NCBI GenBank assembly: GCA_963703315.1
Contig: OY969811.1
Location: 4,480,001-4,544,000, forward strand
Length of the DNA: 64,000 nucleotides
Direction: 5' to 3'
DNA from: an uncultured cyanobacterium
Lineage (GTDB): Bacteria > Cyanobacteriota > Cyanobacteriia > Pseudanabaenales > Pseudanabaenaceae
Numbering within the stretch: the first letter of the stretch is position 1; each line of letters begins with the position of its first letter. Both the position numbers and the translations under genes were made by a program. The notes under the pieces were generated by a model that saw only the letters and a program-made list of their open reading frames with translations, did no database searches and had not been told where the DNA came from. Shown one piece after another: positions 28,287 to 43,743 of this stretch.

Positions 28287-28694
28287 ATGGCTGCTACTTT
28301 AAAAGATTTTTTAGAAGAATGTCACACTCTCGGCTTAGTCCGCCTGATCGTCACCAGTGATGCGGGTGTGCTGGAAGCAAGGGTAAATATCGAGAAGCTA
28401 TTTTACGCGGAACTCCCCAAGGGCAAGTATGCGAATATGCATTCCGAACACATCGAGTTTCACCTAAACATGGACAAAATTACCGATGTCCGCTTTGAAA
28501 CCGCCGAAGCCAAACGCGGCAATTTCACCACCTACGCCGTCCGTTTCCTCGATGCCAATGACAAGCCCCAAATGAGTGCTTTCCTACAATGGGGTAAACC
28601 AGGGGAATATGCTGAAGGTCAAGTCGAAGCATGGGCTGCCCTCAAAGACAAGTACGGCGAAACTTGGAAGCCTGAGCCTGTTGAGAGTATATAA
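28287..28694 (+). CDS. ChuX/HutX-like putative haem-binding protein
   Basis: LGLVRLIV, GKYANM, EFHL motifs recalled from cyanobacterial HutX-like proteins. Confidence 0.6.
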   Translation: MAATLKDFLEECHTLGLVRLIVTSDAGVLEARVNIEKLFYAELPKGKYANMHSEHIEFHLNMDKITDVRFETAEAKRGNFTTYAVRFLDANDKPQMSAFLQWGKPGEYAEGQVEAWAALKDKYGETWKPEPVESI

Positions 28695-28741: not shown

Positions 28742-30043
28742 ATGAAAATACTAAGGGAAATAAGTCGTGGTGGTTTTGGTCGAGTTGAGCTAGTTGAATT
28801 AGATACAAGTAGTATTGTTGCTAGAAAAGTATTTGATCCTGTTCCTAGTATTTTAGACGCATCTGAACTACCAAAGTTGAAAAAGCGATTTCAAAGAGAA
28901 GTCAAAGTCCAAAAGTCACTAAGTAGTGATTATTTTATGTCAGTTCTTGATGCTGATCTTGATGCTGAAACCCCTTGGTTTACTATGCCACTTGCAGATC
29001 GAAACCTTTCGGAAGAACTAGAGGAATCTCGTAAAAATGGTAATATCCCTCTAGAAGCATTGTCAGACATTCTAAATGCGCTAGAAGAACTTCATTCACT
29101 CGGCTATGTTCATCGCGATCTTAAGCCTCAAAACATCCTTTTTCATGAAAATCGTTGGAAGTTATCAGATTTTGGTTTAGTACTTCCTGTTTCAGGTGCT
29201 ACTACCAAATTGACATCTATTGATTCATCTTGGGGAACTATGGGCTACTGTGCTCCAGAACAGGCTGAAGACTTTCGTAATGCTACACCCAGCGTAGATA
29301 TTTATGCTTTTGGGTGCATACTACATGATCTATTTGCAGGATTTCCTCGTGTACCTTATCAACGTTATACAATACAACATCCTGTAGGCATGATAATTGA
29401 AAAATGTACAGAGATAGAACCCAAAAAGCGATTTAAAAATATTACTTCACTACGCGGTACACTTCTCAAGCTATTATCAGAATCGCAAAGTCTTACTCCT
29501 AGCCCTAGTGCTACAGAATGGGAAGGAAAACTGCAAAATCTATCTAATTGGAATATTCAACAATTAGAAGATTTTGCAAGATTTATGAAATCAACTCAAG
29601 ATGAATCTGATTTGTGGGTTGTATGTCGGGCAATTGATGAAGAAGTTTTGCGTACTCTCTGCTCAATAGATAGAGAACTTTGGCAATTAATAGCTCTAGG
29701 ATATTGTGATTGGTCACATGGCTCATTTAACTTCGACTACTGCGATGTGATTATCAGGAGATTGGAAGTGATTTTTGAGTTAGGCAATCTTGATGTCAAA
29801 TCATCTGCTGCTATAGCAAGTGCCACTTTAGGGTGGTCTCATCATCGCTGGTTTGTCATGGGAAAAGTTCTATTTATGCTGGGTGCAAATTTAGATAATT
29901 TGGTAGCACAGCGAATTGCAATAGAAATAAGTGTCGAAGAAGTTTACAAACAATTTATTTCTTGTGCAGAGTTTCTCAAACGAAGTGTCAATGATTACCA
30001 CCCTCAAATTGCTGAAGTTTTGATTGAGTATCAAAAAAAATAG
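28742..30043 (+). CDS. Soluble Hanks-type Ser/Thr protein kinase with unknown helical C-terminal domain
   Basis: RGGFGRV, ARK, HRDLKPQN, SDFG, GTMGYCAPEQ, DIYAFG; no TM segment seen. Confidence 0.9.
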   Translation: MKILREISRGGFGRVELVELDTSSIVARKVFDPVPSILDASELPKLKKRFQREVKVQKSLSSDYFMSVLDADLDAETPWFTMPLADRNLSEELEESRKNGNIPLEALSDILNALEELHSLGYVHRDLKPQNILFHENRWKLSDFGLVLPVSGATTKLTSIDSSWGTMGYCAPEQAEDFRNATPSVDIYAFGCILHDLFAGFPRVPYQRYTIQHPVGMIIEKCTEIEPKKRFKNITSLRGTLLKLLSESQSLTPSPSATEWEGKLQNLSNWNIQQLEDFARFMKSTQDESDLWVVCRAIDEEVLRTLCSIDRELWQLIALGYCDWSHGSFNFDYCDVIIRRLEVIFELGNLDVKSSAAIASATLGWSHHRWFVMGKVLFMLGANLDNLVAQRIAIEISVEEVYKQFISCAEFLKRSVNDYHPQIAEVLIEYQKK

Positions 30044-30102
30044 TTGTCTTCTAGTTGCATTTCAGTAAAACATCTTAAATCCTTAAAAGATTAAGATACC
30101 AA

Positions 30103-30219
30103 TTTGATTTTTGTGGAGTAGCGATCATGATGTTTTGGGTGTTGAGGAGGCGATCTCTGTTTGATTTTCATGAAGTGGCGATCGCGATTTTGGGTGTTGA
30201 GGGGGCGATCGCTGTTTGA
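30103..30219 (+). repeat. HIP1-punctuated cassette-junction repeat R1
   Basis: TTTGATTTTTGTGGAGTA-GCGATCAT-GATGTTTTGGGTGTTGAGGAG-GCGATCTC-TGTTTGATTTTCATGAAGTG-GCGATCGC-GATTTTGGGTGTTGAGGGG-GCGATCGC-TGTTTGA. Confidence 0.9.
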
Positions 30220-30237: not shown

Positions 30238-30471
30238 ATGGGTAAGAAAGAAAAACTACTTGAACTCCTAAAAAACAGTCCCAACAATGTGACGTTTGGC
30301 GATATTCGTAAACTTTTAGAGCTAGAAGGTTTTGACTTGGATAGAATTACAGGTAGTCATCATATTTTCAAAAGAGATGAAGTAGTTCTAGTCATCCCAG
30401 TCCACAACAACCGAGTCAAGTCTGTATATGTTAAAAGAGTTGTAGAACTTATTGAAGGAGAACAATCATGA
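30238..30471 (+). CDS. hicA: HicA family toxin
   Basis: 77 aa, RITGSHHIF, IPVH; ATGA overlap with hicB. Confidence 0.88.
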   Translation: MGKKEKLLELLKNSPNNVTFGDIRKLLELEGFDLDRITGSHHIFKRDEVVLVIPVHNNRVKSVYVKRVVELIEGEQS

Positions 30472-30695
30472 AATATCCAATAGTGATTTATCCATGTGAA
30501 GAAGGTGGTTTTGTAGCTGAAATTCCTGCTTTAAAAGGATGTTTAGCTCAAGGTGAAACCCTAGAAGAAACCTTGCAAGAGTTAATTACAGTAAGAACTT
30601 TGTGGCTAGAGACAGCCCAAAAGCATGGTCAAAAACTTCCAGATGAAAGTAAGGCGATCGCTAGAGTAAAAGCATTAAGTGCGATCGCTGTTTGA
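30468..30695 (+). CDS. hicB: HicB family antitoxin (short form)
   Basis: EEGGFVAEIPALKGCLAQGETLEE; last codons AIAV* are supplied by the junction repeat. Confidence 0.88.
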   Translation: MKYPIVIYPCEEGGFVAEIPALKGCLAQGETLEETLQELITVRTLWLETAQKHGQKLPDESKAIARVKALSAIAV

Positions 30696-30742
30696 TTTTT
30701 GTGAAGTAGCGATCGCGATTTTGGGTGTTGAGGGGGCGGGCT
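30681..30742 (+). repeat. HIP1-punctuated cassette-junction repeat R2
   Basis: GCGATCGC-TGTTTGATTTTTGTGAAGTA-GCGATCGC-GATTTTGGGTGTTGAGGGG-GCG. Confidence 0.9.
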
Positions 30743-30804
30743 GTGTTAACAAAGTGACTCAATTGTTATAATCATTTCTACAACATGATTAAGTTCTAAT
30801 CCTA

Positions 30805-31020
30805 ATGTCAATAACCCTAGAAGAAAGAGTCGCAATCCTAGAAGCTGAAATATCCCTGATTAAGAACAAAGTGGAAAGTCCAACTGTCACAGTAAAACCT
30901 TGGTGGGAGCAAATCACGGGAACATTTGCTGACAGCCCAGACTATGACAAAGCCATGCAACTAGGCAAAAAATACCGTGAGTCATTGCGTAAGACATCAA
31001 CAAAGTCCCGCAAAAAATAG
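30805..31020 (+). CDS. Putative antitoxin partner of VapC
   Basis: 71 aa, LEERVAILE...PWWEQITGTF; stop abuts the PIN-domain toxin start. Confidence 0.7.
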   Translation: MSITLEERVAILEAEISLIKNKVESPTVTVKPWWEQITGTFADSPDYDKAMQLGKKYRESLRKTSTKSRKK

Positions 31021-31341
31021 ATGTACATACTCGATACAGACCATCTCAGCGTATTAGATCGTGGTGGGACTACTGCTCAGCGTCTTCTTACTCGATTAGC
31101 AAAAGTCAATCCTAATCAAGTCTCAGCAACCATCATCAGCTACGAAGAACAGACAAGAGGGTGGTTAAGCCACATTTCCAAAGCACGCAATCTTGAAGCG
31201 CAAGTTGAAATTTACAAACAACTTAAAAGACAAATTAATAATTACTGCACTATTCCAATAATTGATTTTGATATAGAAGCCGCAAATGAATTCCAACGAA
31301 TCAGAAAGTTATACCCTCGCCTCGGCACAATGGACTTAAAA

Positions 31342-33057
31342 CCCACATTCCGCTCGTAATGGAAGAAAAAAAACAATTACGAAACAGGAGCAGGGAGCAA
31401 ATAGTAGCGTTGGCAGGAGGGAGAAAAGAAATTCAAAATGTGAATCCGAAGAGGAGACAAATTAACAACTTGAGTGAGTCCCTGAAAAGAAACTAAATGA
31501 ACCGCCATAAAACATTGAAAAATCCAACGCAAAGTTGGCGAATTAGTGGGTTTACCCAATTGATTAGGAATAGTATCTTGAGCGATGGCTAAGGCAAGTC
31601 TGAGTTGACGTTGGGCTAAATTATAAACGAGCAAGCACAGTGCCATAATCATGCCCAAAGCCTCAATGCGTTTAGCAGACTTGAGAAAAACACTCGAAGT
31701 AAAAAACAAAGGATCTTTGAGGAAACGAAAACCACGCTCAGTGCTCTGCTGAGCCTTGTATTCCCGTAAAGCATCATCAGCCGTGAATTGTAAGGAATCA
31801 AGAATATTCGTGGCTAAAATAAACCTGCCACAACGCTGTTGCTGAGCCAAGATTTCTGAGTCTATAGGAATCACCGTTGCAGTAATCCGATAACTAATGC
31901 TGGTGGGTATAGCATCAGGTTGTGGCTTACCCCGTTTCGCATAATGTGGTTTTTCTACTGCCTGAATATGGTCGAGTTGATGCCATTTCATCTTGGTTGA
32001 TAATTTTTCAGCAGCAGCGATCGCGTCAGCAGCACAGGCAAAATCTTGTCCCGCCAAAGTGTGTAAATCTTGATGACATTTTTGCTGGACTTGCTCAAGC
32101 TTTTTGTCTAACTTTTTGATGTCTGATTTACGTCTTGCTTGGCTATCAACTAAAATCCATCTCTGTCTTACACCACCATACTCACTCACAGTTTCGGCTG
32201 TCCTGTATCCCTTAAATTTACTTTCTTGTAGGTCAGTTGTGCTTGACACTAAGTCACTTGCAGTTTTGATGCTTAATGGCACTCGGGTTAGCCATTTTAG
32301 TCCTGTCATTGCTACCAGATTTTCTTCACTGTATAGCGCTGCATCGCCTACGCATATTCCCTCAAATGTCCACTGGGTTTTGAATTCTTGTAATAGTCCT
32401 GCAAATCTTGCTTTGTCGGCTTGATTTCCACTTACCACTTCCATCATTACGGGAATGTCTCCATCTCCTACACAGATCAGGTTCATCATAAATTGCTTCA
32501 GGTCGGGGCGATGGTCGCGTGAATATCCGTGTGTGATTTCGATACTCCCTTCTTCCTCTCTGCCATATTCCCCATCTACGTGAAATGAGGTTGAGTCTAT
32601 ATGTCCTGTTTCTACCTTGACATCGTATTTCGCTACTGCTTTCAGGCTGATTCCTAAAAATGTCTCACTCAGTCCTGCTTCATGTAAGTCATCCAGTACT
32701 TTACCGATGCGGTCATCATTGATTTGTTCGGCTGTTATCCCTTCCCCCAATAAGTGCTCGGTTGGTTTTCCTTCAAAGAATTTACCAAACATATACAGGG
32801 GTGCTGATACAAATCCTAATCCATTCAGGAGCATGGCTTTGACAATTACTCCTGCACTTACTTTTTCTCTTGAGCTTCTCCCGATTATCGTGTTTATTTC
32901 TTCCACGATTCCCATCTCGTCGATGATTCCTGCCACGATCCCTAGATGGTCTAGGTTCGTTACTTTCATCTCTGTATTAATACCTGCCTCCTCTTTTTGC
33001 TCTTGTGCCTTACCTTTAGTTAATTATTTTACCCTTCCATTACGAGCGGAATGTGGG
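31342..33057 (-). mobile_element. IS1634-family insertion sequence, 1716 bp
   Basis: Perfect 24-bp terminal inverted repeats CCCACATTCCGCTCGTAATGGAAG (31342-31365 / 33034-33057) and 6-bp target duplication TTAAAA (31336-31341 / 33058-33063). Confidence 0.95.
31377..32969 (-). CDS. IS1634-family DDE transposase
   Basis: LDHLGIVAG, HIDSTSF, GYSRDHRPDLKQ, GRFILATN, ERGFRFLKDP. Confidence 0.93.
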   Translation of the reverse strand: MKVTNLDHLGIVAGIIDEMGIVEEINTIIGRSSREKVSAGVIVKAMLLNGLGFVSAPLYMFGKFFEGKPTEHLLGEGITAEQINDDRIGKVLDDLHEAGLSETFLGISLKAVAKYDVKVETGHIDSTSFHVDGEYGREEEGSIEITHGYSRDHRPDLKQFMMNLICVGDGDIPVMMEVVSGNQADKARFAGLLQEFKTQWTFEGICVGDAALYSEENLVAMTGLKWLTRVPLSIKTASDLVSSTTDLQESKFKGYRTAETVSEYGGVRQRWILVDSQARRKSDIKKLDKKLEQVQQKCHQDLHTLAGQDFACAADAIAAAEKLSTKMKWHQLDHIQAVEKPHYAKRGKPQPDAIPTSISYRITATVIPIDSEILAQQQRCGRFILATNILDSLQFTADDALREYKAQQSTERGFRFLKDPLFFTSSVFLKSAKRIEALGMIMALCLLVYNLAQRQLRLALAIAQDTIPNQLGKPTNSPTLRWIFQCFMAVHLVSFQGLTQVVNLSPLRIHILNFFSPSCQRYYLLPAPVS

Positions 33058-33168
33058 TTAAAAATTGCAGCGATCGCCATTGTTAACAATGCGATCGTGT
33101 TAACCAGAAACACTTCTGATTTTGGGCAAATTGCAAACTTACAAATAGAAGATTGGACACAGTAAATT

Positions 33169-33200
33169 GATCGCTGTTTGATTTTTGTGGAATGGCGAGC
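33169..33200 (+). repeat. HIP1-punctuated cassette-junction repeat R3
   Basis: GATCGC-TGTTTGATTTTTGTGGAATG-GCGAGC, 3 nt after the vapC stop. Confidence 0.85.
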
Positions 33201-33277
33201 ATTTGGCAAACGGCGTGCTAAAAGTTGCTTATTGGTTATAAACTCATTGGCTATAATAATTTGTATACGCTAAAAGC

Positions 33278-33553
33278 ATGAAATTTGAATGGGACGCAAA
33301 TAAACAACAACAAAATCAACAAAAGCATAAGATTTCCTTTGAAGAAGCAACAACCGTTTGGACTGATCCATTAGCTTTAATTGCTCCTGATCCAACTCAT
33401 TCAATAACAGAACAAAGAGAATGGATTATTGGACAATCATACGAAAGTCGTATATTAGTAGTTGTTTTCACAATGAGAGAAGAGATAATTAGAATTATCA
33501 GTGTTAGACCTGCCAATAAATCGGAAAGAAAAAAGTATGTCGAATCAACCTGA
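33278..33553 (+). CDS. brnT: BrnT family toxin
   Basis: MKFEWDANK...N..KHKISFEEA...EQR...IG...VVFT.R...IRIISVR.A...ER..Y. Confidence 0.9.
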   Translation: MKFEWDANKQQQNQQKHKISFEEATTVWTDPLALIAPDPTHSITEQREWIIGQSYESRILVVVFTMREEIIRIISVRPANKSERKKYVEST

Positions 33554-33806
33554 ATTTCCTTTTGCTAATGCCAGAAGAATTAGTGAATCAGAAGTAATAG
33601 CTGCCGAGCAAGCTATTAAACAACAATTTGGAATTAATCTCACACAGCATAAAGATTCAACTAAAAATGAAACAGAAAATTATCAATCAATTTCTATTCA
33701 GCTAGATCCTAAAATAATTGCTTGGGCAAAAGCTGAAGCTACAAAAAAAGGAGTTAAATATCAAGCAATCATTAATGAAGTACTTCTCAAGGCGATCGCT
33801 TTTTGA
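33537..33806 (+). CDS. brnA: BrnA family antitoxin
   Basis: ISIQLDPKII.W.K...YQAIINEVL; overlaps brnT; ends AIAF* inside the junction repeat. Confidence 0.85.
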   Translation: MSNQPEFPFANARRISESEVIAAEQAIKQQFGINLTQHKDSTKNETENYQSISIQLDPKIIAWAKAEATKKGVKYQAIINEVLLKAIAF

Positions 33807-33825
33807 TTTTGATGAAGGGGCGATC
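33792..33825 (+). repeat. HIP1-punctuated cassette-junction repeat R4
   Basis: GCGATCGC-TTTTTGATTTTGATGAAGGG-GCGATC. Confidence 0.8.
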
Positions 33826-33884
33826 TCTTTACCTCATGTTAGGATTTAACAAAGTAAATATACTTGTACACAATTAATTCTCTT

Positions 33885-34106
33885 ATGAACACCCTAGTAG
33901 AGATTAAAACAGCGATCGCTAGATTGTCTGATGACGAAACATCAGCATTATTATCGTGGCTACAAGAACGCTCAGAAGATGACTGGGATAAACAAATAAA
34001 GAAAGACTCTGAGCTGGGTAAATTAGACAAAATTATCCAACGAACAAAAGCCCATATCGCCGCCAATCGCGTCAAGAAACTGGATGAAGTCATTAACAAC
34101 TCCTGA
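33885..34106 (+). CDS. Putative antitoxin
   Basis: EIKTAIARL...WDKQIKKD..GKLD; overlaps the downstream RelE-like toxin. Confidence 0.65.
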   Translation: MNTLVEIKTAIARLSDDETSALLSWLQERSEDDWDKQIKKDSELGKLDKIIQRTKAHIAANRVKKLDEVINNS

Positions 34107-34347
34107 TTTTTGGGAGGCTTACGTAGCTTTGCCGCCATCCATCAAAGCCCAAGCCAAAAAAACTTATCAAATCTGGCTAAGCGATCGCTTTTATCCATCC
34201 CTACATTTCAAAAAAGTCAATCAAAATCTATGGTCTATTCGCATCAATAGAGAATATCGAGCTTTAGCCTTAAAAGAAGGAGATGATTATTACTGGTTTT
34301 GGATCGGTTTGCATGACGAATACGACAGATTAATTGATGAAAATTAA
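34084..34347 (+). CDS. RelE/ParE-superfamily toxin
   Basis: TTPDFWEAY..LP, YPSLHFKKV, WSIRINREYRAL, WFWIGLHDEYD. Confidence 0.8.
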   Translation: MKSLTTPDFWEAYVALPPSIKAQAKKTYQIWLSDRFYPSLHFKKVNQNLWSIRINREYRALALKEGDDYYWFWIGLHDEYDRLIDEN

Positions 34348-34348
34348 T

Positions 34349-34428
34349 ATTGAGGAGGCGATCGCTGTTTGATTTTTGTATGGAGTGGCGATAGTGATTT
34401 TAGGTGTTGAGGTGCGATCGCTGTTTGA
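34349..34428 (+). repeat. HIP1-punctuated cassette-junction repeat R5
   Basis: TTGAGGAG-GCGATCGC-TGTTTGATTTTTGTATGGAGTG-GCGATAGT-GATTTTAGGTGTTGAGGT-GCGATCGC-TGTTTGA. Confidence 0.9.
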
Positions 34429-34446
34429 ATATTGTAAAATCAAATA

Positions 34447-34675
34447 ATAGGGTAAGAAAGAAAAACTACTTGAACTCCTAAAAAACAGTCCCAACAACGT
34501 GACGTTTGGCGATATTCGTAAACTTTTAGAGCTAGAAGGTTTTGACTTGGATAGAATTACAGGTAGTCATCATATTTTCAAAAGAGATGAAGTAGTTCTA
34601 GTCATCCCAGTCCACAACAACCGAGTCAAGTCTGTATATGTTAAAAGAGTCGTAGAACTCATAGAAGGAGAATAA
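34447..34675 (+). pseudogene. hicA: Second hicA copy with destroyed start codon
   Basis: Near-identical to 30238-30471 but AATAATG-GGT has become AATAATAG-GGT (in-frame TAG 34448-34450); only an internal GTG at 34499 remains. Confidence 0.8.
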
Positions 34676-34677
34676 TT

Positions 34678-34905
34678 ATGAGATATCCAATAGTAATTTA
34701 TCCCTGTGAAGAAGGTGGTTTTGTTGCTGAAATTCCAGCTTTAAAAGGATGTTTAGCTCAAGGTGAAACCCTAGAAGAAACTTTGCAAGAGTTAATTACA
34801 GTAAGAACTTTGTGGCTAGAGACAGCCCAAAAGCATGGTCAAAAACTTCCAGATGAAAGTAAGGCGATCGCTAGAGTAAAAGCATTAAGTGCGATCGCTG
34901 TTTGA
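34678..34905 (+). CDS. hicB: HicB family antitoxin, second copy
   Basis: Differs from the 30468-30695 protein only at residue 2 (K to R). Confidence 0.88.
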   Translation: MRYPIVIYPCEEGGFVAEIPALKGCLAQGETLEETLQELITVRTLWLETAQKHGQKLPDESKAIARVKALSAIAV

Positions 34906-35011
34906 TTTTTGTGAAGTAGCGATCGCGATGCTTTTTGTTGTTGATGGGGCGATCGTGCTATTTGGGTTGAGATTAGGGGCGATCGCTAGTTGATTTTGGT
35001 GGAGTGGCGAT
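34891..35011 (+). repeat. HIP1-punctuated cassette-junction repeat R6
   Basis: Five GCGAT(CGC) cores separated by linkers such as TGTTTGATTTTTGTGAAGTA and TAGTTGATTTTGGTGGAGTG. Confidence 0.9.
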
Positions 35012-35042
35012 TATTATGTTTATTGTAGTTAGGTAGACCCAA

Positions 35043-35300
35043 ATGCCAACAGTTTTATATGTAAAGGGCTGGCGATTTTTCTTTTATTCAGATGAAGGAA
35101 ACGAGCCAATTCATATTCATGTTCAGAAAGGAGACAGCGAATGTAAATATTGGCTAGACATTGATCTATACGAAATCCGTGAGGCTTACTCCTATGGAAT
35201 GTCATCACGCGATACGAGAGAAGTTAAGAAAATAATTTTACAAAACTTTGATGAAATAGTAGAAGAATGGCAAGCATTCAGGAGTCAGCAAAATGGATAA
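35043..35300 (+). CDS. DUF4160 family protein (predicted TA component)
   Basis: MPTV...GWRFFFYSDE..EPIHIHV...CKYWL. Confidence 0.8.
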   Translation: MPTVLYVKGWRFFFYSDEGNEPIHIHVQKGDSECKYWLDIDLYEIREAYSYGMSSRDTREVKKIILQNFDEIVEEWQAFRSQQNG

Positions 35301-35538
35301 GCAATACAACGTATCGAATATAGAATTTAGTGGCGAATGGATAATTCTATCGGTTAATGAAGAAACCTATCAAATCCCAATTGTTCAAGCTTCTAAAAAA
35401 CTTGCTCAAGCAACAGATATTGAACGTAAGATGTACCGCATTTCTCCATCAGGTTATGGGATTCATTGGTATGCGATCGATGAAGATTTAACAACTAAAG
35501 GACTTATTAAGTTAGCCACAGTTGCCCAAACAGCTTAA
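35293..35538 (+). CDS. DUF2442 family protein (predicted TA component)
   Basis: L..AT..ER...ISPSGYGIHWYAIDEDL; overlaps the DUF4160 gene. Confidence 0.8.
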   Translation: MDKQYNVSNIEFSGEWIILSVNEETYQIPIVQASKKLAQATDIERKMYRISPSGYGIHWYAIDEDLTTKGLIKLATVAQTA

Positions 35539-35545
35539 ACAATGG

Positions 35546-35578
35546 GCGATCGCTGTTTGATTTTTGTGAAGTAGCGAT
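35546..35578 (+). repeat. HIP1-punctuated cassette-junction repeat R7
   Basis: GCGATCGC-TGTTTGATTTTTGTGAAGTA-GCGAT. Confidence 0.88.
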
Positions 35579-35644
35579 ATTACACCCATTAAATTTGTTT
35601 TTTGCTAGACTACATACCAGATACTCATCACTTTGAGGTTATTT

Positions 35645-35872
35645 ATGAGATCAATAGAGCTACTTACGAAAGAATTATTATCTCTCCCTAGTATTTCTAG
35701 AGCGCTATTAGCAGAAAAACTAGTCGAAAGCCTAGAATTTGACACCGATCCAACTGTTCAGGCAACATGGACAGCCGAAGCAAAAAAAAGACGTGATGCA
35801 GTCCGTGATAGTTCTGTTCAAACAATCGAAGGAGAAGATGCTCTAGCTCAGGTAAGACGGTTACTTGCGTAA
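35645..35872 (+). CDS. Addiction-module antitoxin (TIGR02574-like)
   Basis: LSLP..SRALLAEKLVESL...W.AEAKKR; TAATG overlap with the toxin. Confidence 0.8.
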   Translation: MRSIELLTKELLSLPSISRALLAEKLVESLEFDTDPTVQATWTAEAKKRRDAVRDSSVQTIEGEDALAQVRRLLA

Positions 35873-36162
35873 TGAAGTATGTATTTCATCCCGAAGCACT
35901 TGCTGAATATTCTGATGCAGTTCAATATTATGCTGAACAGAGAACAGAAATTGCCCAAGCATTTATCAATGCAATTGAAGATGCAATTTTTCGGATTAAG
36001 GAATCTCCTAATCGTTACGCCGCAATTGATGAAGATATTCGACGATGCATGACACGAAAATTCCCCTACGGAATCCTCTATACGATTGAGGAAGATTATA
36101 TTCTGATCTTAGCCGTGATGCATTGCAGTCGAGAAGTTGGATATTGGAAAAATAGGAAGTAA
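35872..36162 (+). CDS. ParE/RelE family toxin
   Basis: FHPEALAEY..A..YY, RRC...KFPYGILY, ILAVMH.SR..GYW. Confidence 0.88.
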   Translation: MKYVFHPEALAEYSDAVQYYAEQRTEIAQAFINAIEDAIFRIKESPNRYAAIDEDIRRCMTRKFPYGILYTIEEDYILILAVMHCSREVGYWKNRK

Positions 36163-36163
36163 G

Positions 36164-36173
36164 GCGATCGCTG
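36164..36173 (+). repeat. Minimal junction R8 (single HIP1 plus TG)
   Basis: GCGATCGCTG 1 nt after the parE stop. Confidence 0.5.
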
Positions 36174-36257: not shown

Positions 36258-36539
36258 GTGATCCGAAGCTTTAAGGATAAAGAAACTCAAAAAATCTTTG
36301 AGAGACTGCGATCGCGTAAATTGCCATCAGAAATTCAACAAGTAGCCTTACGAAAATTGCGTATGCTAAATCAGTCACCCACTCTTCAAGAACTTCGTAT
36401 TCCACCAGCAAATCGATTAGAACGACTAAGTGGCGATCGTGAAGGTCAATATAGCATTCGGATTAACAATCAATGGCGTATTTGCTTTGAATGGCAAAAT
36501 GATGACGCTTTCAATGTGGAAATTGTTGATTATCATTGA
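36258..36539 (+). CDS. higB: HigB toxin (plasmid maintenance killer family)
   Basis: MIRSFKDKET, PPANRLERLSGDREGQYSIRINNQWRICF, EIVDYH. Confidence 0.93.
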   Translation: MIRSFKDKETQKIFERLRSRKLPSEIQQVALRKLRMLNQSPTLQELRIPPANRLERLSGDREGQYSIRINNQWRICFEWQNDDAFNVEIVDYH

Positions 36540-36548
36540 GGAATCAAA

Positions 36549-36845
36549 ATGAACGAAGATAAACTTAATCCAATTCATCCTGGGGAAGTTCTTTTAGAAG
36601 AATTTCTTAAACCGATGAACTTGAGTCAAAATCAACTAGCGTTAGCTCTTCGAGTTCCCGCCCGACGTATTAACGAAATCATTCACGGTAAACGACGAAT
36701 CACCACAGATACGGCAATTCGCTTAGCATTCTATTTCAATATGTCCCCCAGATTTTGGCTTGGATTACAAATGGATTACGATTTAGATATAGCTGAAGAT
36801 GAAGTTGGAGAAAAACTAAAAATGGAAGTAGCAGTTTTTAGCTAA
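36549..36845 (+). CDS. higA: HigA antitoxin (HTH)
   Basis: PIHPGEVLLEEFL, RINEIIHGKRRIT, FWLGLQ..YDL. Confidence 0.93.
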   Translation: MNEDKLNPIHPGEVLLEEFLKPMNLSQNQLALALRVPARRINEIIHGKRRITTDTAIRLAFYFNMSPRFWLGLQMDYDLDIAEDEVGEKLKMEVAVFS

Positions 36846-36846
36846 A

Positions 36847-36912
36847 GCGATCGCTGTTTGATTTTTTGAAGTGGCGATCGCCCAGCATTGCACTAATTGT
36901 GAGGGCGATCGC
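36847..36912 (+). repeat. HIP1-punctuated cassette-junction repeat R9 (end of array 1)
   Basis: GCGATCGC-TGTTTGATTTTTTGAAGTG-GCGATCGC-23 nt-GCGATCGC. Confidence 0.88.
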
Positions 36913-36934: not shown

Positions 36935-39202
<2,268 letters not shown>

Positions 39203-39260: not shown

Positions 39261-39366
39261 ATCGAGCTTCACCTAAAATATAGACAAAATTACCGATGTT
39301 CGCTTTGAAACCAATTCCACTACCACGCGATCCGCTCCAACGATGCCGATGATAAGCCCCAAATGA
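39261..39366 (+). pseudogene. Decayed internal fragment of the hutX-like gene (copy of 28452-28575)
   Basis: ATCGAGCTTCACCTAAAATATAGACAAAATTACCGATGTTCGCTTTGAAACC...GATAAGCCCCAAATGA aligns by eye to 28452-28575, with a frameshift and an ~18-bp deletion. Confidence 0.85.
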
Positions 39367-39476: not shown

Positions 39477-40736
39477 ATGGTAAAAGCTGTTATGTCCAAT
39501 CTAAAACTTTTTGAGGAAGAAAAAAAGGATTTAACTTTCTTTGAAGAAAAAGAAGATACAGATAGTGATTCTGATGATCTCCAAAAACTATTAGAAGAGA
39601 TTGCCGAAATCCTCGTGACTGGGACTGATTGGACAACAAGAACTTTACTAGATCAACTTGTGAGGGAAAATATTCAATTAAATCCAAGATTTCAAAGACG
39701 TGATGCGTGGAATATCGTACGAAAAAGTAGATTTATAGAATCAATTATTCTTGGATTTCCTATCCCACACATAGTTTTAGCATCTAATCAAAAAGAACGA
39801 GGAAAATTCGTTGTTCTTGATGGTAAGCAACGCCTACTTACGATTCTTCAATTTTACGGTAAAAGCACGGCGACAAAAAATAATAATTTCTCTTTGAGAG
39901 GATTAGAATTCAGGAAAGATCTAGATGGTCTTTCGTATAAAGATTTAGAAAATAATCCAGACTATGCTTCTATAGTTGCACCTCTTGATAATCAGACTAT
40001 TCGCACTATCTTGATCCGAAATTGGCATACTGAATCTTTTCTCTATAAAATCTTTTTACGTCTTAATGTTGAAAGTACGCCTTTATCACCTCAAGAACTT
40101 AGACAGGCACTTCATCCAGGTGATTTTGTCAACTTTTTAGACGATCAATCGGTTGCTAGTCAATCGTTGAGGCGAATTTTTAAGTCAAAAGAGCCTGATT
40201 TTAGGATGAGAGACAATGAATTGCTTATGAGGTTTATGGGATTTCATTATTTCTTACCTGAGTATCGTGGCACATTAAAAGCTTTTCTAGATATGACTTG
40301 TAAAAGGCTTAATGAAGAATGGGAAAATAAAGCAGACGATATTAAGGAAGCCGCTAATCAGTTTGAATACGCTATAGAAGTAACTATTGAGATATTTGGA
40401 GAAAGACATTTCTCCCGTCTTTGGCTAGATAAATCACAAACATATCGCAGTCAATTTAATAGAGCGATTTTAGATGCTATGGTTTTCTATTTTTCTGATC
40501 CTATTATTAGAAATGTAGCAGTAACTAGAAAAGAATCAATAAATACCGCATTCAAGGAACTATGTTCTTCTACTGGAAATGGATTTAGAGAATCTGTCGA
40601 GGGTAATACAAAAAATATTGGTGAAACCTTTACTCGCTTATCTTTATGGGGGAAAACTCTTAGAGATATATTAGATATAGATTTCAATGTACCTGATTTA
40701 ATTGAAAACCGCATAGTCTTCACCAGTTTACATTAG
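39477..40736 (+). CDS. DUF262 (GmrSD N-terminal/ParB-like) domain protein
   Basis: P.FQR..W, FIESI..G.PIP, VLDGKQRL, IFLRLN...PLSPQELR. Confidence 0.85.
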   Translation: MVKAVMSNLKLFEEEKKDLTFFEEKEDTDSDSDDLQKLLEEIAEILVTGTDWTTRTLLDQLVRENIQLNPRFQRRDAWNIVRKSRFIESIILGFPIPHIVLASNQKERGKFVVLDGKQRLLTILQFYGKSTATKNNNFSLRGLEFRKDLDGLSYKDLENNPDYASIVAPLDNQTIRTILIRNWHTESFLYKIFLRLNVESTPLSPQELRQALHPGDFVNFLDDQSVASQSLRRIFKSKEPDFRMRDNELLMRFMGFHYFLPEYRGTLKAFLDMTCKRLNEEWENKADDIKEAANQFEYAIEVTIEIFGERHFSRLWLDKSQTYRSQFNRAILDAMVFYFSDPIIRNVAVTRKESINTAFKELCSSTGNGFRESVEGNTKNIGETFTRLSLWGKTLRDILDIDFNVPDLIENRIVFTSLH

Positions 40737-40750
40737 TTTCTATTTAGAAT

Positions 40751-41344
40751 ATGTCGATTTCAAGAAGGTTTCGTGATTTAGAGAGAGAGCTAAGTAGACT
40801 AAAAAAGCAATTTCTACCTAAAATTAGTCCTACTGGCTCATATTCTGATAGAAAGCTGTCCTTAACTATTGCTTATAGAGTTTTAGCTCATGCTGAGATT
40901 GAATCCTATCTTGAGAATAGAGCTGAGGAAGTAGTTCTCTATGCAAAGAGAAAATGGGATGTTGATGGCAATTCTAGTCGCGCATTGGTTGCTATTGTGG
41001 CTTTTGCAGAAAACAAGCGAACTGCATCTGCGCCATTCTTAAATGATAAAATAAGATTTGCAGTTGATATTTTTCAGACTGCAATCCGAGAAAATCATGG
41101 AATAAAAGAAAAGAATATTCTGAATTTGATGTTGCCAATAGGTATAGATAATAATGATTTAGATACTGTTTTCTTGGCTAATATGAATACGTTTGGAGAA
41201 GATAGAGGTCTTGTAGCGCATTCATCAGCAACACTATATAGAGTAACAAATTTACCAGATCCTGCTACTGAGTTAAATAGAATACAGCAAATTACTAATG
41301 ACCTTAGAAATTTAGATCAGCTAATAAGTGCTTTGATGGAATAA
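40751..41344 (+). CDS. HEPN-domain protein (RiboL-PSP/MAE_28990-like)
   Basis: LAHAEIESYLE helix and Rx4H motif RGLVAH; 14 nt after the DUF262 gene. Confidence 0.75.
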   Translation: MSISRRFRDLERELSRLKKQFLPKISPTGSYSDRKLSLTIAYRVLAHAEIESYLENRAEEVVLYAKRKWDVDGNSSRALVAIVAFAENKRTASAPFLNDKIRFAVDIFQTAIRENHGIKEKNILNLMLPIGIDNNDLDTVFLANMNTFGEDRGLVAHSSATLYRVTNLPDPATELNRIQQITNDLRNLDQLISALME

Positions 41345-41352
41345 AGAATGTA

Positions 41353-41499
41353 GTGATCGCTGTTTGATTTTTGTAGAGAGGTGATCGTGATGTTTTTGGG
41401 TGTTGAGAGGGCGATCACTGTTTCATTTTTGTGGAATGGCGATCGTGATATTGAAGTGTTGAGGGGGCGATCGCTGTTTGATTTTTGATTGGGGCGATC
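41353..41499 (+). repeat. HIP1-punctuated cassette-junction repeat R10 (longest)
   Basis: Six HIP1-like cores with alternating linkers A (TGTTTGATTTTTGTRGARDG) and B (GATNTTTGGGTGTTGAGRGG). Confidence 0.9.
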
Positions 41500-41536
41500 A
41501 TGTTAATCTATAAAATATAAATTAGGGAACAAAGAT

Positions 41537-41728
41537 ATGACTGCTGTAGTACAAGAGCTTCTAAATACCTTTGATAATCTCACATACGCAGAAAGACTAG
41601 ACTTATTATCAGAAATTCTAAGACGAACAGTTGACTTAGAATTTGAACCATTATCTGATGAAGAACTAACATTGAACGCCGAAGACCTGTTTCTAACGTT
41701 GGACGAAGAAGAGTTAGCCGATGAGTAG
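41537..41728 (+). CDS. Putative acidic antitoxin
   Basis: 63 aa, very acidic C-terminus; overlaps the MazF-like toxin. Confidence 0.7.
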   Translation: MTAVVQELLNTFDNLTYAERLDLLSEILRRTVDLEFEPLSDEELTLNAEDLFLTLDEEELADE

Positions 41729-42056
41729 CCCAGAACGTGGAGAAGTTTGGCTAGTCGATCTTGGCTATGTCGCAAAAGTCAGACCATGCTTAGTTATTAG
41801 TATCCCAGCCCTAGACAGCGATCGCGCATTAGTAACCCTAGTTCCACATACAACGAGTTTGCGCGATTGCAGATTTGAAGTAAAAGTCAAAGCTAAATTT
41901 TTGCGAGAAGGCGCATTTGACGTACAAAATCTCATCACAATCCCTCATGCCAAACTTTTACGCAAACTAGGAGAGCTAACATCAGAGCAAATGGAAGACT
42001 TAGAAGATGTCTTACTCGTATGGTTAGGATTTGAATCTGAAAAAGACGAAGACTAA
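41721..42056 (+). CDS. mazF: PemK/MazF family toxin
   Basis: RGEVWLVDLG..AKVRPCLVIS, LVPHTT, KLGEL. Confidence 0.88.
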   Translation: MSSPERGEVWLVDLGYVAKVRPCLVISIPALDSDRALVTLVPHTTSLRDCRFEVKVKAKFLREGAFDVQNLITIPHAKLLRKLGELTSEQMEDLEDVLLVWLGFESEKDED

Positions 42057-42077: not shown

Positions 42078-42147
42078 GCGATCGCTGTTTGATTTTTGTG
42101 GAGAGGCGAGCGTGATTTTTGGGGTTGAGATGGGCAATCGCTGTTTA
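42078..42147 (+). repeat. HIP1-punctuated cassette-junction repeat R11
   Basis: GCGATCGC-TGTTTGATTTTTGTGGAGAG-GCGAGCGT-GATTTTTGGGGTTGAGATGG-GCAATCGC-TGTTTA. Confidence 0.88.
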
Positions 42148-42166
42148 AACATTGTAAAATCAAGTT

Positions 42167-42341
42167 GTGGGTAAGAAAAAATAAACTACTTGAACTCCTA
42201 AAAAATAGCCCCACGTGACGTTTGCAGATATTCGTAAACTTTTAGAGCTAGAAAGTTTTGACTTGGATAGAATTACAGGCAGTCACCATATTTTCAAAAG
42301 AGATGAAGTAGTTTTCGTCATCCCAGTTCATAACAACCGAG
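42167..42341 (+). pseudogene. hicA: Third hicA copy, frameshifted and truncated, no hicB
   Basis: Aligns to the 30238-30416 region; GTG start, extra base giving an early TAA, small deletion, ends after CATAACAACCGAG. Confidence 0.85.
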
Positions 42342-42535
42342 CAGCAATTCTCATTATGGAAAATTAACGGCGTTGCACACACTCATAATGATCAAGTAAA
42401 AATAGGAAAGGATTTCTGATTTTTGCGTTTGAGGTAAAAAAGTAGTAACCGAATCGAAATCTGCAACATTAATCATCACTAACTCCCTTTTACTTTTATT
42501 GGTAACATAGATTAAGAAATATATTGAAATAACTC

Positions 42536-43743
<1,208 letters not shown>

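Follow-up and report, generated by a model that had tools for sequence, protein, structure and literature searches.

The gene junctions between 28.7 and 42.4 kb of the window, the 64,000-nucleotide stretch of an uncultured cyanobacterium of the Pseudanabaenaceae analyzed in this study, raise the question of why a tandem repeat should stand at the end of one small gene pair after another. The repeat is one-directional and is built on HIP1, the palindrome GCGATCGC, a common octamer whose function is described as open for three decades in the accessible text of PMC13756078 and PMC5861425.

Eleven junctions in the window each carry one to six HIP1-like cores, and the number, coordinates and architecture of the blocks hold as given in the original prediction. 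Whole cores stand on both sides of linkers of 18 to 23 nt, with core-to-core periods of 26 to 31 bp (n = 23). The predicted period of 27 to 28 bp was found in 16 of these, but the strict alternation of two linkers, A and B, was not, as the block at 34891 reads A-B-B'-A and the second linker of the block at 36847 is unrelated to either. Several linker classes, more than one A/B pair, exist across the genome. The linkers were correctly described as almost devoid of C, with 9 C in about 465 bases, five of them in one atypical linker (36882-36904). The first core was also correctly described as usually intact and the inner ones as often degenerate, a perfect HIP1 being present in 8 of 11 first cores and 9 of 24 later ones; block 1 has two perfect cores out of four.

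The blocks belong to two arrays (Table 1), one lying 3' of the chuX/hutX gene and the other on the upstream side of icd, and a block follows every complete cassette. The cassettes that they bound measure 500 to 700 bp and are mostly type II toxin-antitoxin pairs. At the ends of hicB and brnA, a core and the start of linker A are read as the last codons and the stop (30681-30695, 33792-33806 and 34891-34905); linker A supplies the stop, and therefore the joint completes the gene of the cassette. The Ser/Thr kinase of array 1, which PADLOC matches through the kinase domain only, occupies the same locus in genome G002 and is replaced in most other genomes; the sequence 3' of the chuX stop codon varies among congeners. 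The GmrSD-domain gene of array 2 matches NsnA in PADLOC (E = 2e-64). No Pfam or other family match was obtained for the PIN-like fragment, of which congeners carry an intact 140-aa form. The IS1634 element that splits it has several near-identical copies elsewhere in the genome and is absent from this site in the contigs of other strains.

Table 1. Genes and HIP1 blocks of the two cassette arrays, in order of position in the window
Feature	Position	Strand	Basis and remarks
chuX/hutX-family housekeeping gene, anchor of array 1	28287..28694	+	Pfam PF06228; orthologous loci
Ser/Thr kinase, strain-variable lead cargo, no left block	28742..30043	+	Pfam PF00069
Junction block 1	30101..30212	+	Linker A (leading core decayed), then cores at 30121, 30150, 30178 and 30205; A-B-A-B
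HicA-HicB cassette	30238..30695	+	Pfam PF07927, PF15919; hicB frame crosses core at 30681 and stops in linker A
Junction block 2	30681..30743	+	3 cores, A-B
Small gene and PIN-like gene	30805..33165	+	ORFs; second gene split by IS1634; PIN is a reading of the sequence
IS1634-family insertion sequence, unrelated to the blocks	31340..33059	-	Inverted repeats; NF033559 above cut-off
Junction block 3	33167..33202	+	2 degenerate cores, A
BrnT-BrnA cassette	33278..33806	+	Pfam PF04365, PF14384; brnA stop inside next block
Junction block 4	33792..33827	+	2 cores, A
Small gene and ParE-like toxin cassette	33864..34347	+	Pfam PF24732
Junction block 5	34358..34421	+	3 cores, A-B
Second HicA-HicB cassette	34422..34905	+	97% identical to first HicA-HicB; hicA ATG disrupted
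Junction block 6	34891..35014	+	5 cores, A-B-B'-A; first unit identical to first unit of block 2
DUF4160-DUF2442 pair	35043..35538	+	Pfam; weak DhiT toxin match, NF048015 below cut-off
Junction block 7	35546..35581	+	2 cores, A
Addiction-module antitoxin and ParE toxin cassette	35633..36162	+	Pfam PF09720, PF05016
Lone HIP1	36164..36171	.	Joins two cassettes, each with full flanking blocks in other genomes
HigB-HigA cassette	36258..36845	+	Pfam PF05015, PF01381
Junction block 9	36847..36912	+	3 perfect cores; A, then unrelated C-containing linker; ends array 1
Monomeric isocitrate dehydrogenase	36935..39166	-	Pfam PF03971; upstream side anchors array 2; loci L048-L052
Decayed chuX piece, 73% identity	39261..39366	+	Precedes lead cargo of array 2
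GmrSD N-terminal domain (DUF262-type) gene and RiboL-PSP-HEPN gene, defence-like lead cargo	39477..41344	+	Pfam PF03235, PF18735
Junction block 10	41353..41501	+	6 cores, A-B-A-B-A
Small gene and MazF/PemK toxin cassette	41537..42056	+	Pfam PF02452
Junction block 11	42078..42141	+	3 cores, A-B
Third hicA copy, broken, without hicB	42142..42367	+	dapF next at 42536

Because the source genome contains 8,189 copies of HIP1, the chains of cores needed a chance control. Under the block filter, 29 chains of at least three cores were found in the genome, none in the reversed genome and none in each of three shuffles that retained every HIP1 position. HIP1 pairs 24 to 45 bp apart show no overall excess (330 observed, about 323 expected), pairs at 27 bp number 33 against 14.7 expected, and strand-skewed linkers join 85 of the 330 pairs compared with 6.9% in controls. 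The genome holds about 19 clusters of related blocks, with linkers typical of each locus, and most clusters surround small gene pairs. Long blocks lie outside ORFs of at least 150 aa in 28 of 29 cases, while 85% of HIP1 sites are inside such ORFs. For 78 toxin genes of five Pfam families in the source genome, a block was found within 1 kb of 24, compared with 4.1% of random positions.

The unit pattern matches 42 of 47 congeners (Pseudanabaena), the other five being genomes of 73 to 94% completeness; elsewhere in the family it matches 3 of 23 genomes. Of 300 genomes sampled from the phylum, 1 matched a stricter pattern, and with a looser one all 15 congeners tested and 6 of 185 further members of the class were matched. 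The matches listed from a collection-wide scan are mostly Pseudanabaena. Only one of 72,556 plasmid records matched; viral contigs gave one match, which the filter did not call a block, and several single matches in Nostoc fall inside a coding sequence and are due to chance. Tumidithrix (L080) has comparable arrays, and so does Cronbergia (L097), where the linker is different and one cassette is shared with Pseudanabaena at 88 to 90% identity. Positional bias is thus strong and the blocks are lineage-restricted, so that the linkers are not a ubiquitous repeat without preferred position. Outside the family, longer HIP1-linker blocks with other linkers were seen in L097/L314:1-3954, L311:7253-9868 and L312:6243-6539, the Cronbergia blocks that bound cassettes having 8 to 15 cores each. 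The end of a contig labelled Bacteroidetes (L111:1-670) is 99% identical to window positions 30637-31303 and is probably a chimeric assembly.

These counts bear on the view that the blocks are a neutral minisatellite, grown by slippage from a HIP1 pair, and that cassettes collect there only because any repeat at a neutral place between genes would be recombinogenic, HIP1 having no special part in it. Unit number does vary widely, from one to six in the window to more than ten in blocks of L048 and L097, the T-runs and G-runs of the linkers vary in length, and 54 of the 78 toxin genes have no block within 1 kb. However, the central GATC is kept at 98 to 100% in 964 inner cores while the linkers drift, a figure to which the filter itself contributes; core and polarity are the same, and the period similar, in linker classes that are unrelated to one another; and blocks stand between almost every cassette and hardly elsewhere, long ones nearly always outside the larger ORFs. 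We consider a neutral minisatellite improbable.

To see where a cassette ends, we compared the copies in different genomes. For the window cassettes, homology to copies elsewhere ends at or within blocks, and in the cross-genome comparison the DNA proper to a cassette extends, on either side, no farther than a core. On the 3' side it reaches the first core, with linker A next in 160 of 226 segments. On the 5' side cassette-specific sequence takes in the right half of the last core, preceded by a unit that may be A or B. Across the 226 segments, positions 1-5 of the last core match HIP1 in 96 to 100% and positions 7-8 in 58 to 61%. Among ten pairs at least 97% identical, identity drops from 96% just inside the cassette to 86% in the adjacent unit, which is still above the background of 72 to 74%. 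Adjacent units thus go partly along with a cassette or else change rapidly, and these data do not place the crossover at one bond. ParDE and HigBA are joined by a single HIP1 at 36164, and each has full flanking blocks elsewhere. No block stands to the left of the lead genes; in its place, short repeated pieces of the 3' end of chuX, some of them decayed, come before lead genes of the defence-like kind (39261-39366 in the window; L105, L036, L043, L209, L215 and L080), which suggests a second possible route of exchange through the end of the anchor gene.

What lies between the blocks was sampled as 226 distinct segments from the source genome and from fetched loci longer than 1.5 kb. They fall into 113 families, and 142 of them measure 500 to 700 bp. 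When 90 ORFs from 51 families were scanned, 34 families carried named toxin-antitoxin domains, 6 carried domains of unknown function typical of such pairs, and 11 carried neither. Homologous cassettes share a downstream neighbour in only 3 of 83 pairs and keep their orientation to the repeat in all 257 pairs. Neighbouring blocks of at least three cores are on the same strand in 158 of 158 cases, and the cassette genes run with the block direction in 124 instances and against it in 100. Linker class is shared by 237 of 242 homologous pairs, where 47% is expected, these pairs being non-independent through shared ancestry and the classes being motifs written after the data were seen, in a sample that leans to one class and from which 24 of 226 unclassable segments were dropped. 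Three cassette families cross linker classes. With respect to the anchor gene, blocks run 56 with and 30 against when upstream and 34 with and 35 against when downstream, by crude anchor calls; the GC skew of the source genome is too flat for defining replichores.

Orthologous chuX and icd loci hold different cassette sets in different genomes. The housekeeping gene downstream of these arrays varies between most genomes (L033-L052). On comparison of gene order, the arrays coincide with putative rearrangement breakpoints. We also looked for new joints in metagenome contigs. Among 15 of 38 joints listed, which have mostly short sides and come mostly from other strains, nine have both ends and four have one end in a block; the best-supported of them joins a DUF4160 cassette to a PIN-like cassette. 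No joint among these 15 closes a cassette on itself, in contigs that drop rare forms.

From these comparisons, the blocks define what we read as a multi-locus, genus-wide pool of interchangeable toxin-antitoxin cassettes; they mark the cassette edges and likely act as points of exchange, with no integrase alongside. The proposal that the repeats are scars of insertion and excision at HIP1 agrees with cassette ends at cores, scrambled order and the lone-HIP1 junction. Mere scars are unlikely to be the whole story, since polarity and linker class are kept.

A different role would be played if the blocks acted at the RNA level, insulating the cassettes as terminators, sites of processing or stabilising hairpins, and DNA exchange were incidental. 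This idea draws on the position of the blocks after stop codons, some of which, those of hicB and brnA, linker A itself provides in the window, and on the stronger RNA folding of the G/T-rich strand (mean −11.95 kcal/mol, against −7.73 kcal/mol for its complement). The linkers had been called not self-complementary, and as DNA they indeed fold no better than shuffled linkers (mean z 0.04, 400 of 965 units); what has to be added is that successive cores are able to pair with each other because HIP1 is palindromic, and that one A unit folds as a G-U-rich RNA stem of 13 pairs. As RNA, the linkers fold slightly better than their shuffles (mean z −0.74), so that linker order adds little to folding in either form. 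Against it, the genes of the cassettes run in either direction, none of the terminator-like sites coincides with a block, promoter and terminator scans gave nothing above chance, and no Rfam match was obtained at E ≤ 0.1 between 28000 and 43000 of the window. An RNA role would also leave the cassette ends inside cores unexplained, and we regard it as very improbable.

We suggest that cassettes are gained, lost and reordered by HIP1-directed short-homology recombination through host machinery, probably during natural transformation, and that the linkers set direction and compatibility; we give this reading a probability of about 0.55. Incoming DNA, or another copy of the chromosome, would pair with a resident block, and the HIP1 core would be the preferred crossover point. 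On either side, about ten bases of T-rich and purine-rich linker would add homology, fixing the direction and giving preference to blocks of like class. If tandem units paired out of register, a cassette could be inserted or deleted, the unit number altered and duplicates such as the two HicAB cassettes produced; a crossover of the first core with the last would reduce a junction to a lone HIP1, as at 36164. For the larger lead genes, a swap might use the first block on one side and homology in the anchor gene's 3' end on the other. Direct repeats invite deletion, and the likely reason for the build-up of toxin-antitoxin pairs is that they resist it. The longest exact match is 11 to 28 bp between blocks of one array, reaching 39 bp in the window, and has a median of 13 bp between blocks of different arrays, which fits class preference. 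Exact identity below 25 bp, as in most block pairs, is short for ordinary RecA pairing. The host encodes recA within the window, and comEC, dprA and a Dam-family methylase are present as well. According to the available text of bioRxiv 10.1101/2024.09.10.611283, a homologous HIP1 ending a homology arm raised integration in Synechococcus PCC 7002 7-fold, and 83-fold if methylated, and precise deletion between HIP1 sites is cited in PMC13756078. The evidence for recombination at the blocks is comparative throughout.

We turn to the enzymes that might move the cassettes. The source genome is 99.67% complete and contains no match to a serine resolvase and no integron integrase. In chromosomal integrons, small cassettes of uniform size, many of them type II toxin-antitoxin pairs, each carry a downstream repeat of fixed polarity and change order between strains, and the toxin-antitoxin arrays of the window resemble them; the HIP1 blocks likewise bound reordered cassettes of fixed polarity to their sites. 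The arrays might thus be integron remnants, that is, attC clusters without an integrase, or else REP-like substrates of an HUH tyrosine transposase. Integron integrases are indeed encoded by 27 of 47 congeners, and RAYT genes are followed by two-core units in L313. However, attC sites end in the boxes R'' (RYYYAAC) and R' (GTTRRRY), and none of the 11 window junctions has this motif pair on either strand. Of 30 intI loci, only 1 has a block within 1.5 kb, and there it is inside the ORF; unit counts are the same in genomes with and without intI (median 12 and 12, p = 0.83). Unlike integrons, the blocks have no linked intI, no imperfect long palindrome and, given DNA folding at the level of shuffles, no strand-specific long hairpin with extrahelical bases; they form about 19 separate clusters in one genome, have several repeats per junction and bound genes that face either way. 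Blocks occur within 1.5 kb at 3 of 30 RAYT loci, and the single RAYT of the source genome has flanking repeats of its own, one long and direct and the others short motifs, unrelated to the blocks (L250:1110-1260, 1850-2050), unlike a REP or BIME system with its cognate transposase. Close RAYT homologues are found in 27 of 47 congeners and in neither of two g151 genomes. An origin from integrons or REP-like elements is largely refuted, and we give it hardly any credence. The original prediction that the repeat is neither attC, REP nor CRISPR is borne out by the missing end boxes, the unrelated RAYT repeats and the blank Rfam search; in addition, the linkers are repeated families, in contrast to the unique spacers of CRISPR.

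Two loci had suggested otherwise. In L091:2270-4320, a Synechococcales metagenome contig, an intI with an internal stop is followed by a same-strand block, a Phd-RelE-type pair and another block; this is the only metagenome case seen of intI beside a block, and the integron link that it suggested was rejected on intI distance, unit counts and the lack of attC boxes. In L313:5205-7118, tandem RAYT genes are each followed by a two-core HIP1 unit, and a toxin-antitoxin-like pair comes next; RAYT as a general driver was rejected on its 3 of 30 loci, its own unrelated repeats and its patchy homologues. Integron integrases above cut-off were recorded in 30 of 71 genomes of the family, at varied loci without HIP1 blocks (L281-L310).

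The only tyrosine recombinase above cut-off in the source genome is a 507-aa Xer-like protein (G000:C1:1754114-1755634, where G000 is the source genome; L248:1495-3018). Its gene is present in 45 of 47 congeners, nearly always as a single copy and 75 to 88% identical. At 43% identity, the N-terminal domain resembles the catalytic domain of the same protein; it has neither the HxxR histidine nor the tyrosine-bearing end, and from its sequence it is a catalytically incomplete copy of that domain. The full-length two-domain form is restricted to the genus and g151, both of which are block-positive, and in other genera of the family the N-terminal extension is different or absent. As an array-linked integrase the gene was rejected, since a block of at least three cores lies within 4 kb at only 1 of 20 loci and the surroundings are mostly conserved and housekeeping. 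The protein is a candidate dimer resolvase in a phylum without a known dif site. A second integrase-family match, at 26.1 bits and below cut-off, is a TetR-family protein; the C-terminal half of this protein (G000:C1:4366193-4369654; L249:1393-2640) weakly matches tyrosine recombinase models, and it abuts a block array.

A host recombinase could still act in trans on a HIP1-centred site of about 28 bp, in the way that XerC/D acts on pdif, with the Xer-like protein as candidate and its dead N-terminal copy perhaps reading the neighbouring unit. The period of 26 to 28 bp (654 of 965 units) and the TTT conserved at linker positions 3-5 although the linker sequence varies look like a possible protein footprint that pure homology does not predict, a signal that is partly the product of the search pattern and the block filter; because of the tight period, we keep a protein-read site as the main rival. 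The period is near the 28 bp of dif, which was not predictable in cyanobacteria according to the accessible part of PMC3025954, and that source and bioRxiv 10.1101/542381, as far as their text was available, point to a cyanobacterial recombinase subgroup. Strict block polarity, cassette boundaries inside the core and the co-occurrence of the two-domain form with blocks also agree with such a site. The pdif modules of Acinetobacter are similar in that some are toxin-antitoxin pairs of about 770 bp with short bounding sites close to 28 bp in length and no recombinase of their own, as described in the available text of PMC6449649. However, that text gives the module sites as XerC/D and XerD/C, whereas the HIP1 sites are tandem direct repeats with a palindromic centre, do not alternate in orientation between neighbouring long blocks and are mainly chromosomal. 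The arms around the inner cores are not inverted repeats about a central spacer, with 2.1 of 10 symmetric positions against 2.6 for random HIP1, and the genome has one divergent Xer-like gene in place of a XerC/XerD pair. The co-occurrence is confounded by kinship, and G330 has blocks and yet matches the C-terminal part of the protein only. The conserved locus, the missing left block of the lead genes and the lack of a cassette circle among the joints listed also count against it. We consider action of this protein in trans unlikely.

Somewhat broader, and still doubtful in our view, is the possibility of a dedicated cassette system, in which HIP1 would be the crossover core of a polar site of 27 to 28 bp recognised in trans by an enzyme of the host, perhaps the two-domain Xer-like protein, and the linker classes would be compatibility groups that sort a toxin-antitoxin and defence pool among many landing sites, across cyanobacterial orders.

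Short-homology recombination at HIP1, the reading that we prefer, has its closest parallel in Neisseria. The NIME arrays of this naturally transformable genus consist of 20-bp dRS3 cores and RS elements of 19 to 214 bp and, like the HIP1 blocks, alternate short palindromic cores with spacer families at variable length in syntenic sites; exchange with incoming DNA by homologous or site-specific recombination has been proposed for them, and minimal mobile elements are small alternative gene sets between conserved genes (accessible text of PMC1797815). The HIP1 blocks are likewise dynamic arrays at syntenic sites tied to gene exchange. They differ in that the core is the 8-bp HIP1 and the linkers are of about 20 bp and strand-polar, that they bound each cassette of a shuffled toxin-antitoxin pool whereas NIME flank surface-antigen genes, and that no phage recombinase is known for them.

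A likeness to small dispersed repeats within HIP1 sites of Nostoc had also been proposed. SDR5 is a 21-nt insert between bases 3 and 4 of HIP1 as described, in part through citing papers, in the available text of PMC4390886, PMC13756078 and PMC5861425, and the proposed likeness fails on architecture because the cores here are whole on both sides of the linker. The smtB deletion, plasmid recombination in PCC 7002 and SDR5, as cited in these three papers, do share HIP1 as the junction sequence, and the lone HIP1 at 36164 matches a precise core-to-core deletion. They are, however, single events or 21-nt inserts inside HIP1 in Nostocaceae, in contrast to tandem whole cores with polar linkers and an organised gene pool. 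We conclude that the HIP1 blocks work like NIME and minimal mobile elements and give integron-like or pdif-like arrays, and that none of these systems has all its defining features matched by the blocks. HIP1-jointed cassette arrays were not described in the literature searched, which consisted of main texts, few of them of subscription papers.

In this genome, HIP1 is used at scale as a boundary of mobile cargo, and the arrays offer natural variants of core, linker, polarity and class. They would reveal how, with no integrase, a large stock of toxin-antitoxin and defence genes is maintained and reshuffled in a cyanobacterium. Strains differ in the gene downstream of an array, so the blocks may in addition promote chromosome rearrangement, and class-matched blocks could serve as short directional landing pads in cyanobacterial engineering. 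If the dedicated system were true, it would be a functional equivalent of the integron built on the genome's own methylated octamer, and would give HIP1 a direct function.
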